NCBI RefSeq assembly: GCF_036507355.1
Contig: NZ_AP027881.1
Length of the DNA stretch: 6,346 bases
From: Escherichia coli
GTDB lineage: Bacteria; Pseudomonadota; Gammaproteobacteria; Enterobacterales; Enterobacteriaceae
Reading direction: 5' to 3' (one strand)
Shown here: one piece after another, positions 1,283 through 6,346 of the stretch
Layout of the letters: every line of letters begins with the position of its first letter
How positions within the stretch are numbered: the first letter of the stretch is position 1
Position numbers and translations under genes: made by a program
The notes under the pieces: generated by a model
The model's input: only the letters and a program-made list of their open reading frames with translations
What the model was told of the DNA's origin: nothing
The model's database searches: none

Positions 1283-1311
1283 TTGAGATTATTTAATTCA
1301 GCGGGTAGTCT
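1283..1311 (+). promoter_or_regulatory. RNA II (primer) promoter of ColE1-type replicon 1
   Basis: TTGAGA (-35), 17-bp spacer, TAGTCT (-10), positioned as in the pMB1 RNA II promoter (TTGAGA...TAATCT) just upstream of the RNA I terminator complement. Confidence 0.55.
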
Positions 1312-1321
1312 TTCGCTTGAA

Positions 1322-1425
1322 AAAGAAAAAACCGCCCTGCAAGGCGGTTTTTCGAAGGTTCTCTGAGCTACCAACTCTTTGAACCGAGGTAACTGGCTTG
1401 GAGGAGCACAGTCACCAAAACTTGT
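1322..1425 (-). ncRNA. RNA I antisense copy-number control RNA, replicon 1
   Basis: Complement of the RNA II 5' region. 5' end placed by alignment to pMB1 RNA I (ACAGTATTTGG vs ACAAGTTTTGG here); 3' end is the hairpin ACCGCCTTGCAGGGCGGT plus U-run. Ends approximate to about 5 nt. Confidence 0.7.
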
Positions 1426-2432
1426 CCTTTCAGTTTAGCCTTAACCGGCGCATAACTTCAAGACTAACTCCTCTAAATCAATTACCAGTGGCTGCTGCCA
1501 GTGGCGCTTTTGCATGTCTTTCCGGGTTGGACTCAAGTCGATAGTTACCGGAACAGGCGCAGCAGTCGGACTGAACGGGGGGTTCGTGCATACAGTCCAG
1601 CTTGGAGCGAACTGCCTTCCCGGAACCGAGTGTCAGGCGTGGAATGAGATAAACGCGGCCATAACAGCGGAATGACACCGGTAAACCGAAAGGCAGGAAC
1701 AGGAGAGCGCACGAGGGAGCTACCAGGGGGAAACGCCTGGGATCTTTATAGTCCTGTCGGGTTTCGCCGCCACTGATTTGAGCGTCAGATTTTGTGATGC
1801 TTGTCAGGGGGGCGGAGCCTATGGAAAAACGGCAACGCCGCTTCCTTTTCTCTTCCTTTCCCAATTTGATTGCTACTAGCCTACTCCTTTACTTCTGAGC
1901 CGGTAACGCCCGCCGCAGTCTCACGTCCGGAGCGTAGCGACCGAGTGAGCGAGGAGGCGTAATTTCATCGACTCCTGCATTTTTCACTTACGCCCTACAG
2001 CTACATTTTTCACCTGCCAGGGGTCAGTTTGGATATAGAGAATTATTGTACGGTAAGCCTGTTTTTTGAACAGACTTACCTATAGCAATAGGGTGTACTC
2101 CCGCGCTATACGGCATTTTCAGAGGTTTGACCTTAATCGGATAACCTAAATGCGATACTGCAAGAGCGACAACTTAAAAGCGATAGCCACTGACGCAAAA
2201 TCAACCCCTTACGAACCAAGATTGGTTAAATAATGCGCTTAACGTACAAAAATTTCCGATCTCCAAACTGACCCCTTCTTCGCCTCTTATGTTTCTCGAA
2301 TGAATCGATGGGGACAGGAAATGTTTTGTGGCCACCGCCGCTTCGCCGGCACCACAAAACTGTCGGACAAGATGTGTTTTTGGAGTACCGCCGGCACCAA
2401 AAACATTTCATCAGGCGCAGCCTGATACCCTG

Positions 2433-2850: not shown

Positions 2851-2878
2851 CGCCTCAAAATGGCTCTGAGGCGTTTTC
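2851..2878 (+). terminator. Hairpin plus T-run just upstream of Xer site 2
   Basis: CGCCTCA-aaatggctc-TGAGGCG followed by TTTTC. The same GCCTCA/TGAGGC stem recurs before site 3 and in degenerate form before site 1, so it may be part of the recombination-site module rather than only a terminator. Confidence 0.35.
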
Positions 2879-2881
2879 AGC

Positions 2882-2909
2882 GGTGCGGGCAAGGGATGTT
2901 ATGGTAAAT
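2882..2909 (+). other. XerC/XerD-type recombination core, site 2 (GGTGCGGGCAA-GGGATG-TTATGGTAAAT)
   Basis: Same architecture and identical central region and XerD arm as site 1; direct orientation. Confidence 0.75.
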
Positions 2910-2944
2910 TGCTCATCACAGTAGCCAGTTAAGCAGAGGTTAGA

Positions 2945-3271
2945 ATGTTTGGGTTTTTTAAGAAAAAAAAGCTCTATGAAGAGATCTGTAAAGATGCAGG
3001 GATGGCTTTATCTGATGGGTTATTGGCCCAAGGCTTAGCGAGAAACAAAATAGAAGCAATGGGGGCTGGTGCTGTTTTTAGTCAGTCTTTGAGGGAGGCT
3101 GTTTCTCAAGGTTACAAGTCTTCTGATGCGATTGCTGAAGCAAGAAAAAACACATCTCATCATCTAGCTGCTAGAGGGTTTGATTTTGAAACGATCGCAA
3201 GTGCGATTGATGTTTTTTGTACTGCTACAGCATTTGAATCAATGTTAGATCTTGCTCGCGATAAAGGCTGA
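2945..3271 (+). CDS. Hypothetical cytoplasmic protein, 108 aa, low GC
   Basis: ORF with good SD (GAGG 6 nt upstream of ATG); no signal peptide; lysine-rich N-terminus (MFGFFKKKK). Bracketed by Xer sites 2 and 3. No family recognised. Confidence 0.6.
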   Translation: MFGFFKKKKLYEEICKDAGMALSDGLLAQGLARNKIEAMGAGAVFSQSLREAVSQGYKSSDAIAEARKNTSHHLAARGFDFETIASAIDVFCTATAFESMLDLARDKG

Positions 3272-3303
3272 ATATCGAGAGGAGTGACGGGTTGTTATCA
3301 TTA

Positions 3304-3330
3304 GCCTCAGAGTAGATTTGAGGCCTTTTG
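3304..3330 (+). terminator. Hairpin plus T-run after the 108-aa ORF, immediately upstream of Xer site 3
   Basis: GCCTCA-gagtagatt-TGAGGC followed by CTTTTG, 33 nt after the ORF stop; same stem as the site 2 hairpin. Confidence 0.4.
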
Positions 3331-3333
3331 GGC

Positions 3334-3361
3334 GGTGTATGCAGGAGATGTTATGGTAAAT
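3334..3361 (+). other. XerC/XerD-type recombination core, site 3 (GGTGTATGCAG-GAGATG-TTATGGTAAAT)
   Basis: XerD arm identical to sites 1 and 2; XerC arm and central region diverged; direct orientation. Confidence 0.7.
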
Positions 3362-3428
3362 ATGTCTTATTGAGAATATTCTTACTAATGCGCGGTTTTT
3401 TTCTAATTTTTAAATGGATGACTTAAAA

Positions 3429-3806
3429 ATGAAGGCAAGATTTTTTGCAGCCTTGCTTATTACTTTTTTTCTTTCTGGATGTGCGACAGAGGCGGGATAT
3501 CAAAGGGTATTAAATTCATGGATGGGATCTACTGATGTGAGCTTGATTCAGTCATGGGGGCCGCCTCAGCAATCTTATGAACTTTCTGGCCATACCTTCC
3601 TAGTTTATTCAAATAGCTCTAGCTCTTATATACCTGGAGTGGCTCCTACCTATCAGACTACGTTTATTGGTAATACAGCGTATACAAACACCTATGGCGG
3701 CTCGCCCGGCTTTAATGTTAGCTACTCATGTACTACGACTTTTGAGGTTGTTGGCGGGAAAATTGTTAACTGGCGTTATCAGGGCAACAATTGCACATCG
3801 CGTTAG
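3429..3806 (+). CDS. Lipoprotein of unknown function, 125 aa, low GC
   Basis: Signal peptide MKARFFAALLITFFLSGC (lipobox LSGC). Start at 3429 preferred over the track start at 3414 because it begins the signal peptide. Mature part is Ser/Thr/Tyr/Gly-rich with two Cys near the C-terminus. No family recognised. Confidence 0.65.
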   Translation: MKARFFAALLITFFLSGCATEAGYQRVLNSWMGSTDVSLIQSWGPPQQSYELSGHTFLVYSNSSSSYIPGVAPTYQTTFIGNTAYTNTYGGSPGFNVSYSCTTTFEVVGGKIVNWRYQGNNCTSR

Positions 3807-3973
3807 TCGTGTGTCCAATCGTAGTATCAGGTGAAGATACAATAGAGAACTTAATACCCTCTTGGTGGGTATATAAAAACCAAGATGAGCGTAGCGACCT
3901 TCTTTAAACTCGTTCCTTGTGTGTCTTACCCTGCAAAAGGTTTGATTGTGTGGGTGTAAATGAAATCGTTGCG

Positions 3974-4003
3974 TTGACAGTTACATGTGACGAGATGTAG
4001 TCT
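3974..4003 (+). promoter_or_regulatory. RNA II (primer) promoter of ColE1-type replicon 2
   Basis: TTGACA (-35), 18-bp spacer, TAGTCT (-10), directly upstream of the RNA I terminator complement. Confidence 0.55.
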
Positions 4004-4011
4004 CTAAAACG

Positions 4012-4112
4012 AAAAAACCGCCCTGCAAGGCGGTTTTTTCGAAGGTTCTCTGAGCTACCAACTCTTTGAACCGAGGTAACTGGCTTGGAGGAGCGCAGTC
4101 ACCAAAACTGTT
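4012..4112 (-). ncRNA. RNA I antisense copy-number control RNA, replicon 2
   Basis: Same reasoning as replicon 1 RNA I; terminator hairpin ACCGCCTTGCAGGGCGGT plus U-run at the 3' end. Ends approximate. Confidence 0.7.
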
Positions 4113-4693
4113 CGTTTAGTTTAGCCTTAACCGGCGCATAACTTCAAGACTATCTCCTCTAAATCAGTTACCAGTGGCTACCGCCAATGGCGATTTGTCG
4201 TGTCTTTCCGGGTTGGACTCAAGACGATAGTTACCGGAACGGGCGTGGTAGTCGGACTGAACGGGGGGTTCGTGCATACAGTCCAGCTTGGAGCGAACTG
4301 CCTACCCGGAACTGAGTGTCAGGCGTGGAATGAGATAAACGCGGCCATAACAGCGGAATGACACCGGTAAACCGAAAGGCAGGAACAGGAGAGCGCACGA
4401 GGGAGCCACCAGGGGGAAACGCCTGGGATCTTTAAGTCCTGTCGGGTTTCGCCACCACTGATTTGAGCGTCAGATTTCGTGATGCTTGTCAGGGGGGCGG
4501 AGCCTATGGAAAAACGCCCGCCGGGGCGTGGCCTTTTCGCCCTTGTCCTTAGCTTTCGTTATGCTTACCGTTACGTTATCTGCTTATCCTCCCTCCGCTC
4601 GCCGCAGACTCATGACCGAACGGAGTGAGCGAATGAGCGAGGAAGCGGAAAACAATCAGAACGTACAGTAAGCACTTTCGCGCCGGGGCCTTC

Positions 4694-4885
4694 ATGAACA
4701 AACAACAAAAGACAGCCGTTAACATGGCTAAATTCATCCAGGATCAGTCCCTGCTTCTTCTGGACAGGCTTAATGAGCTGGATCTGGATCATGAGGCTGA
4801 TTTCTGCGAGAAACTCCATGAGGATGCGGAACGCCTTTACCGAAGCCTGTCAGCGCGCCTGAATGAGCAGCAGGACGGTGCGTAA
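4694..4885 (+). CDS. rop: Rop/Rom (RNA one modulator) homolog, 63 aa
   Basis: Same length as pMB1 Rop, with clear similarity along the whole protein as recalled (MTKQEKTALNMARFIRSQTLTLLEKLNELDADEQADICESLHDHADELYRSCLARF vs MNKQQKTAVNMAKFIQDQSLLLLDRLNELDLDHEADFCEKLHEDAERLYRSLSARL here). Confidence 0.85.
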   Translation: MNKQQKTAVNMAKFIQDQSLLLLDRLNELDLDHEADFCEKLHEDAERLYRSLSARLNEQQDGA

Positions 4886-4898
4886 TGTCTCCGTTCTG

Positions 4899-4918
4899 GG
4901 TATTACCGGAGTAATACC
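4899..4918. repeat. Perfect hairpin/palindrome GGTATTAC-cgga-GTAATACC downstream of rop
   Basis: 8-bp perfect stem with 4-nt loop. A second palindrome with the same half-site, TATTACC-cc-GGTAATA, lies at 4957-4972. Confidence 0.6.
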
Positions 4919-5188
4919 GGCATCGCCTTAATTTTCATTGTCTTAGCGCTTAACATTATTACCCCGGTAATACCCACAATCCCTGTATTTTTTCTTTTTT
5001 ATTTATTTTTCATGAAGTTGCGATGAAAATCGCAGCTGCGTTAGGTGTATGACCATTTTGAGGTTGAAAAATAATCAACCATGGCGGGTGATTTACGCAG
5101 GTTAAGGGGAGATCGTGACAAAAAAAAGCGTTCCTCACTGTATCGTTCATGCCTGCATGAACGGGTTATTCTTCCTGACTACAGAATT

Positions 5189-5340
5189 ACATCGCTCCTT
5201 CAGTTCATACATCACTTTTACAACACTTTTACAACACTCCTTCGGCCTGTACATCACTTTTACAACACTTTTGCATCACTTTTACATCATTTATACATCA
5301 CTTTTACATCATTCCTTCAGCTCATACGTCACTTTCATCC
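5189..5340. repeat. Tract of roughly 11-bp tandem repeats (core ACAxCACTTTT), iteron-like
   Basis: Repeated units ACATCACTTTT / ACAACACTTTT / GCATCACTTTT / ACATCATTT across about 150 bp, bracketed by direct repeats CCTTCAGTTCATACATCACTTT (5197-5218) and CCTTCAGCTCATACGTCACTTT (5314-5335). The ORFs the track predicts here are repeat-translation artefacts. Confidence 0.7.
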
Positions 5341-5526
5341 TCTGTGCCATTTGTACATCACCCCCTTCCTGAACGTGCTGACAGCGGGTTTTCCGGCTGC
5401 GCCGGCAACGCTTCACGGCCACGCAATAAATTGCGTCCCCGTTCACCGTTTTCGGATGGGAAGAACGCCGGAAACAGGACTTCCCCTGGCTGAATGGTGT
5501 GAATTTCCGCGCTATGCACTTGCGCG

Positions 5527-6346
5527 GGCACTGTTGCAAAGTTAGCGATGAGGCAGCCTTTTGTCTTATTCAAAGGCCTTACATTTCAAAAACTCTGCTT
5601 ACCAGGCGCATTTCGCCCAGGGGATCACCATAATAAAATGCTGAGGCCTGGCCTTTGCGTAGTGCACGCATCACCTCAATACCTTTGATGGTGGCGTAAG
5701 CCGTCTTCATGGATTTAAATCCCAGCGTGGCGCCGATTATCCGTTTCAGTTTGCCATGATCGCATTCAATCACGTTGTTCCGGTACTTAATCTGTCGGTG
5801 TTCAACGTCAGACGGGCACCGGCCTTCGCGTTTGAGCAGAGCAAGCGCGCGACCATAGGCGGGCGCTTTATCCGTGTTGATGAATCGCGGGATCTGCCAC
5901 TTCTTCACGTTGTTGAGGATTTTACCCAGAAACCGGTATGCAGCTTTGCTGTTACGACGGGAGGAGAGATAAAAATCGACAGTGCGGCCCCGGCTGTCGA
6001 CGGCCCGGTACAGATACGCCCAGCGGCCATTGACCTTCACGTAGGTTTCATCCATGTGCCACGGGCAAAGATCGGAAGGGTTACGCCAGTACCAGCGCAG
6101 CCGTTTTTCCATTTCAGGCGCATAACGCTGAACCCAGCGGTAAATCGTGGAGTGATCGACATTCACTCCGCGTTCAGCCAGCATCTCCTGCAGCTCACGG
6201 TAACTGATGCCGTATTTGCAGTACCAGCGTACGGCCCACAGAATGATGTCACGCTGAAAATGCCGGCCTTTGAATGGGTTCATGTGCAGCTCCATCAGCA
6301 AAAGGGGATGATAAGTTTATCACCACCGACTATTTGCAACAGTGCC
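5527..6346 (-). mobile_element. IS26 (IS6 family), complete 820-bp copy
   Basis: 14-bp terminal inverted repeats GGCACTGTTGCAAA at 5527-5540 and its reverse complement at 6333-6346; length 820 bp; encodes the canonical Tnp26 sequence. The element ends at the last base of the window. Confidence 0.95.
5579..6283 (-). CDS. tnp26: IS26 transposase Tnp26, 234 aa
   Basis: Translation MNPFKGRHFQRDIILWAVRWYCKYGISYRELQEMLAERG...GEMRLVSRVFEM matches IS26 transposase as recalled. The track ORF carries a 6-codon upstream extension (MLMELH) that is probably not translated. Confidence 0.95.
   Translation of the reverse strand: MNPFKGRHFQRDIILWAVRWYCKYGISYRELQEMLAERGVNVDHSTIYRWVQRYAPEMEKRLRWYWRNPSDLCPWHMDETYVKVNGRWAYLYRAVDSRGRTVDFYLSSRRNSKAAYRFLGKILNNVKKWQIPRFINTDKAPAYGRALALLKREGRCPSDVEHRQIKYRNNVIECDHGKLKRIIGATLGFKSMKTAYATIKGIEVMRALRKGQASAFYYGDPLGEMRLVSRVFEM

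Follow-up and report, generated by a model that had tools for sequence, protein, structure and literature searches.

In ColE1-type plasmids RNA I is transcribed antisense to the 5'-terminal part of RNA II, the primer transcript, and Rop (Rom), a small four-helix-bundle dimer, stabilises the RNA I–RNA II kissing complex and thereby lowers copy number; Rop acts in trans. In ColE1 itself (NC_001371) blast mapping places the origin at 1201 on the plus strand and rop on the minus strand, running from 1803 to 1612, so that gene and primer transcript converge; beyond the origin, the rop stop codon comes after 411 bp and the start codon after 602 bp. The pMB1 replicon of pBR322 has the same arrangement. 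An earlier note on the DNA studied here had described the classical rop as opposite to RNA II and several hundred bp beyond the origin, and ColE1 agrees with that description. Convergent rop genes are also found 596–605 bp from the origin in a Salmonella 4.6-kb plasmid, an E. coli 6.8-kb plasmid and Yersinia pPCP1, and 425–433 bp from it in two 2.7-kb plasmids (from Shigella and E. coli).

The window—the whole stretch of E. coli DNA analysed, 6,346 nucleotides—contains two ColE1-type replicons and one rop gene, which follows origin 2. Replicon 2 shares with ColE1 and pMB1/pBR322 the RNA I/RNA II control, a homologous origin motif, a primosome-site block and a homologous Rop (56–59% identity), but in ColE1 rop is on the opposite strand, bom/oriT lies between origin and rop, and rop is divergent from mobC. 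We conclude, with a probability of roughly 0.9, that positions 4006–4885 form an ordinary replicon of ColE1 type, from a lineage widespread among enterobacteria, with its elements in the order RNA II promoter, RNA I, origin, primosome-site block and rop.

Results

Replicon 2: RNA I, RNA II and the origin

The RNA I antisense repressor of replicon 2 (4009–4110, minus strand) matches Rfam family RF00106 over the full model, 1–102, with 95.8 bits (E = 1.1e-17; gathering score 47), and is preceded by a promoter, TTGAAG-18-TAAACT, on the minus strand at about 4147–4118. Because RNA I lies on the minus strand in both replicons, RNA II is on the plus strand in both, and is therefore co-directional with rop. 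The RNA II promoter (3974–4003, plus strand) has a −35 element TTGACA at 3974–3979, an 18-nt spacer and a −10 element TAGTCT at 3998–4003; its sigma-70 weight-matrix score of 11.0 is the highest in the region, and it aligns with the RNA II start region of ColE1. The primer precursor itself (4006–4515, plus strand, about 508 nt) is 74% identical to ColE1 645–1201 over its whole length (558 aligned columns, blastn). ColE1 RNA II is some 47 nt longer in a three-way alignment, as replicon 2 has lost segments of 25, 3 and 13 nt and shows a few gaps of one base.

The ColE1 origin motif GGCGGAGCCTATGGAAAAACG aligns at 4496–4516 and 1811–1831 when replicon 1, replicon 2 and ColE1 are compared. Within it, the putative RNA-to-DNA switch region of origin 2, GGAAAAACG (4508–4516, plus strand), is assigned by homology to the ColE1 origin and is invariant in alignments with ColE1, replicon 1 and four related plasmids. 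Homology with the ColE1 motif places origin 2 at about 4515; in ColE1 the switch reportedly occurs within the A run. Further downstream, at 4595–4652 on the plus strand, is a block resembling a primosome assembly (n'/PriA) site, CCGCTCGCCGCAG...GAGCGAGGAAGCGGAAAA, which is kept in replicon 1, replicon 2, ColE1 and all five of the co-directional plasmids compared. We take this block to correspond to the ColE1/pMB1 primosome assembly site, its function being assumed from ColE1. Homology with the ColE1 backbone extends in the alignment to about 10 bp before the rop ATG. Replicon 2 thus has what defines a ColE1-type replicon: an RNA I overlapping the primer 5' end, the origin motif and the primosome-site block.

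Many of these plasmids have in RefSeq a 37–52-aa "replication initiation protein" CDS inside RNA II on the opposite strand, at 1135–1248 in plasmid L001, 3873–3986 in L002 and 784–942 in L003, equivalent to about 4183–4296 on the minus strand of the window. ColE1-type replication is not known to need a plasmid-encoded initiator, and this CDS is therefore probably an annotation artefact.

The rop gene and its product

The gene at 4694–4885 on the plus strand encodes a 63-aa protein that matches Pfam PF01815 (Rop) at profile positions 1–56 of 57 (E = 2.1e-29; 101.6 bits against a cut-off of 25) and aligns one-to-one with PDB 1rop (E = 5e-19). It is identical to RefSeq WP_001041614.1, which is annotated as Rop in related plasmids. 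These matches, together with the minus-strand RNA I, bear out the claim that a real rop follows origin 2 on the RNA II strand. That it lies close downstream also stands, although the distance of about 130 bp given in the earlier note is some 50 bp off: the origin motif alignment puts the rop ATG 179 bp downstream of origin 2, the shorter figure having come from adding the 555 nt of ColE1 to the RNA II start. Its position, behind the primosome-site block, 179 bp beyond the origin and on the strand of RNA II, agrees with the co-directional plasmids described below and not with the ori-bom-rop layout of ColE1 and pMB1.

The RNA-binding face of Rop is said to consist of K3, N10, F14, Q18 and K25. 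Four of these five residues are unchanged in the alignment with PDB 1rop (K3, N10, F14 and Q18), and K25 is replaced by R. We infer that the window's Rop would bind the kissing complex and lower copy number. Between the window's rop and those of its relatives dN/dS is about 0.1 and dS about 1.5, which indicates that the co-directional layout is old and that rop is constrained by purifying selection.

Distribution of the co-directional layout

The region 3990–4900 was compared with PLSDB by megablast, matches being counted as collinear at a coverage of 80% or more. This gave a minimum of 749 collinear plasmid records; among the matches listed all 30 cover the query from end to end and 28 have rop annotated. 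A shorter query for the ori-to-rop junction, 4440–4885, which includes only 76 bp of conserved origin, recovered at least 1,048 records at 80% coverage or more, some of them at about 75% identity and including plasmids of 2.0–2.5 kb from several genera; a ColE1-type junction used for comparison recovered at least 1,308. The earlier note had allowed that this may simply be a known variant arrangement, and that being the norm in related plasmids would make it unremarkable. Given so many collinear records and the rop annotations among them, that is the case: the co-directional layout is already known, standard and widely annotated. A literature search for a co-directional rop or for RNA II read-through into rop returned nothing specific.

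Rop homologs were identified by tblastn in 4,289 PLSDB records, and the gene arrangements measured in representatives of each Rop identity tier fall into three classes. In class A, with a Rop either 100% or 74–79% identical to that of the window, rop is co-directional and 171–179 bp from the origin. Class B Rops are 54–61% identical and the genes convergent, as in ColE1, pPCP1 and small plasmids of E. coli, E. fergusonii, Salmonella and Shigella. Class C, represented by 9.3-kb Klebsiella colicin-type plasmids, has a Rop of 64% identity encoded on the opposite strand about 4 kb from the origin. Class A Rops are 76–97% identical among themselves and at most 69% identical to the rest. NZ_AP027481.1 (L016), whose Rop falls in the class B tier, was left out of the geometry classes because the blastn queries detected no ColE1-type origin in it.

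Eighteen of 60 evenly spaced rows from the listing of 4,289 records fall in the class A tiers. The co-directional layout would accordingly appear in roughly 30% of the Rop-encoding records, a figure extrapolated from those 60 rows with one verified representative per identity tier and so not a full census. The ori-to-rop distance is 171–179 bp in all nine of the other co-directional copies measured, which come from seven plasmids, two of them measured twice; it is 179 bp in the three copies with an identical Rop and 171–179 bp in those whose Rop is 74–79% identical.

The closest relatives are members of MOB-suite rep_cluster_2327: K. pneumoniae NZ_CP034051.1 (3181 bp), E. coli p64EVA-1 NZ_CP138400.1 (3167 bp) and pCE35-4 NZ_CP139186.1. 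Their origin, spacer and rop are 99.9–100% identical to those of the window, with WP_001041614.1 annotated and rop co-directional at 179 bp; no difference distinguishes them over 4006–4885, the window differing in having a second ColE1-type replicon and IS26. More distant are the Klebsiella and Salmonella plasmids p4B960 (NZ_CP070414.1), pZ0117KP0028-3 (NZ_CP098134.1), OW968462.1 and NZ_CP126180.1, which share the gene order, orientation, 171–179 bp spacing and primosome-site block, but have a Rop of 74–79% identity, a spacer about 75% identical and an intact 140-aa HTH_17 gene after rop. The 9.3-kb K. pneumoniae colicin-type plasmids of ColRNAI_rep_cluster_1857 (pCZ862_ColRNAI) resemble the window in having a ColE1-type origin and a Rop homolog (64%), and differ in the place of rop, some 4 kb from the origin and on the other strand.

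Source of rop transcripts

Polymerases that set out from the RNA II promoter without forming a primer would continue past the origin and transcribe rop in sense orientation. Terminator prediction gives no intrinsic terminator on the plus strand between origin 2 and rop, and the weight matrix finds no conserved sigma-70 promoter in the origin–rop spacer of the window and four relatives. The best spacer candidate, TTGTCC-17-TACCGT at 4543–4571, scores 8.3, at about the 90th–95th percentile of shuffled sequences, and is common to only one of the four relatives (where it scores 6.5). With the same matrix the established promoters of RNA II and RNA I reach 10–11, and the region upstream of ColE1 rop, a gene known to be expressed, only 4.0. 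Since the matrix also misses the ColE1 rop promoter, the missing spacer promoter says little, and a weak promoter may be present. A consensus promoter and terminator scan of 3900–5100 reported no promoters; it missed those of RNA II and RNA I as well and is therefore too strict to be informative.

Immediately after the origin there is a GC hairpin (4514–4529) followed by GGCCTTTTC, present in all five relatives, that could attenuate read-through. We make no claim that it terminates read-through, since the T run is separated from the stem and compensatory base changes are missing from the alignment.

Whether RNA II read-through provides a real share of rop mRNA is, on the sequence features, a question on which we would give even odds. 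A weak spacer promoter specific to this lineage, for which 4543–4571 is the best candidate, would account for the remaining message or for the whole of it. A stronger version holds that rop has no promoter of its own in this lineage and is made essentially or mainly as a 3' extension of non-priming RNA II. Consistent with this are the co-directionality and the 171–179 bp spacing, both kept despite saturated synonymous divergence, the spacer without a conserved sigma-70 promoter, the plus strand without a predicted terminator, and the position of rop in relatives at the head of a two-gene unit with overlapping stop and start codons. However, conservation of the primosome-site block largely explains the constant spacing, the spacer candidate does reach 8.3 in the window, with 6.5 for its counterpart in one relative, and the scoring that finds no promoter here fails on ColE1 rop too. 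We therefore regard exclusive or predominant dependence on read-through as doubtful.

The gene following rop

In all five of the aligned plasmids the rop stop codon overlaps the next ATG (TAATG or TGATG). The relatives have at this place a 140-aa reading frame matching PF12728 (HTH_17; E = 6e-9), intact in the co-directional plasmids L020 (3777–4199), L009 (2116–2547) and L007 (632–1054), where it overlaps the rop stop. The overlap suggests that the HTH_17 gene is translationally coupled to rop in these plasmids. Only nine HTH_17 codons are left in the window and its closest relatives; the remnant (4885–4914, plus strand) ends after MSPFWVLPE.

Reduction of the downstream partner to nine codons is what would be expected if the rop reading frame were itself a decaying remnant without a role. 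It is nevertheless very improbable that rop is decaying, because the 63-aa frame is intact and covers the Pfam model almost completely, the identical protein is present in several independent plasmids, dN/dS is low, and the RNA-binding residues are retained.

A mosaic of three small plasmids

Three small plasmids, joined at Xer sites, make up the window together with an IS26. Positions 1–966 and 4995–6346 match the 4171-bp plasmid pLR-62-2_8; 933–2909 correspond to the complete 1943-bp plasmid NZ_CP080064.1, with replicon 1 and no rop; and 2870–5455 match the 3181-bp plasmid NZ_CP034051.1, with replicon 2 and rop. Such a history, with Xer-site junctions and IS26, might be thought to have generated the co-directional rop by a local rearrangement or assembly artefact of the cointegrate, such as an inverted pMB1-type bom-rop segment, but this can hardly be entertained and is refuted by the collinearity of 2870–5455 with complete monomeric 3.2-kb plasmids at 96–100% identity and by the recurrence of the same junction in those 1,048 or more records, plasmids of 2.0–2.5 kb and several genera included, quite apart from the freedom of 4006–4995 from any mosaic junction.

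Three Xer (cer/mwr-like) core sites with the exact XerD arm TTATGGTAAAT and 6-bp central regions are present, at 939–966, 2882–2909 and 3334–3361, compared with 0.07 exact arms expected in the window; the ColE1 cer core was checked as a comparison. The parental-plasmid junctions fall on Xer sites 1 and 2, with the complete 1943-bp plasmid between them, which suggests that the cointegrate formed by Xer recombination. A literature text search for the XerD arm yielded nothing relevant. Each Xer site is followed by a small open reading frame (974–1267, 2945–3271 and 3414–3806), none of which has a Pfam match; those at 974–1267 and 3414–3806 look lipoprotein-like by eye.

IS26 (820 bp, 5527–6346; transposase reading frame 5579–6301 on the minus strand, Pfam DDE_Tnp_IS240) ends exactly at the end of the window. 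In pLR-62-2_8 the sequences corresponding to positions 6346 and 1 directly adjoin each other, which makes it likely that the window is an entire circular plasmid of 6346 bp, linearised at the edge of IS26. IS26 has no target-site duplication, its two 8-bp flanks being different. No record in PLSDB or among complete E. coli genomes covers 80% or more of the exact 6346-bp mosaic.

Several other features of the parental backbones were noted. A tandem array at 5208–5311, in the backbone common to the 4171-bp and 3181-bp plasmids, repeats an 11-bp unit, TACATCACTTT, 9.6 times, each repeat corresponding to one helical turn. At 127–588 there is a gene for a DMT transporter of the YdcZ type (Pfam PF04657, E = 2e-35). 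It is followed, within 127–816, by a putative IS6100 3' end, made up of the C-terminal part of a transposase and, at about 784–816, a terminal inverted repeat. In the backbone of the 1943-bp plasmid, at 2320–2410, adjacent GC-rich inverted repeats, GTTTTGTGGCCACCGCC...GGCACCACAAAAC and GTTTTTGG...CCAAAAAC, are apparent by eye.

Replicon 1 and the probable sharing of one rop

Replicon 1 (1283–1831, plus strand, with origin 1 at about 1830) is identical over its whole length to the complete 1943-bp plasmid NZ_CP080064.1. Its RNA II promoter, TTGAGA-17-TAGTCT at 1283–1311 on the plus strand, has a sigma-70 matrix score of 10.2, and its RNA I (1323–1423, minus strand) matches RF00106 with 92.6 bits. 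By tblastn the rop at 4694–4885 is the only one in the whole window, and none is found in the 1943-bp plasmid that supplied replicon 1; origin 1 therefore has no rop, as had been proposed. What lies behind origin 1 is a ColE1-backbone-like stretch (1907–2019, plus strand) made up of the primosome-site block and a stretch of CATTTTTCAC repeats. The suggested likeness of 1977–2019 to the post-origin stretch of ColE1/pMB1 holds up in the alignment, where CTGCATTTTTCACTTACGCCCTACAGCTACATTTTTCAC of replicon 1 is matched with GTGCATTTTCTCCTTACGCATCTGTGCGGCATTTCACAC of ColE1 downstream of its origin.

The RNA I molecules of replicons 1 and 2 differ at four positions, none of them in the three loops. 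As Rop is trans-acting and the RNA I loops are identical, origin 1 probably suffers no functional consequence from having no rop behind it, and the single rop would serve both origins of the cointegrate in trans. On the same sequence comparison the two replicons should have the same incompatibility specificity and repress each other, an unusual situation for a small plasmid that maintains two origins.

Discussion

As a discovery the co-directional ori-rop layout matters little, since it looks odd only against ColE1 and pBR322. Among Rop-encoding plasmids there are at least three stable ori-rop geometries, and because these track Rop lineage, models of copy-number control derived from pMB1 may not transfer directly to the other lineages. 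The one real functional difference between the layouts is that read-through from RNA II is sense to rop in one and antisense in the other. If rop is indeed made as an extension of non-priming RNA II, Rop dosage would depend both on how much RNA II is made and on what share of initiations fail, a feedback absent from ColE1 and pMB1, in which read-through is antisense to rop.
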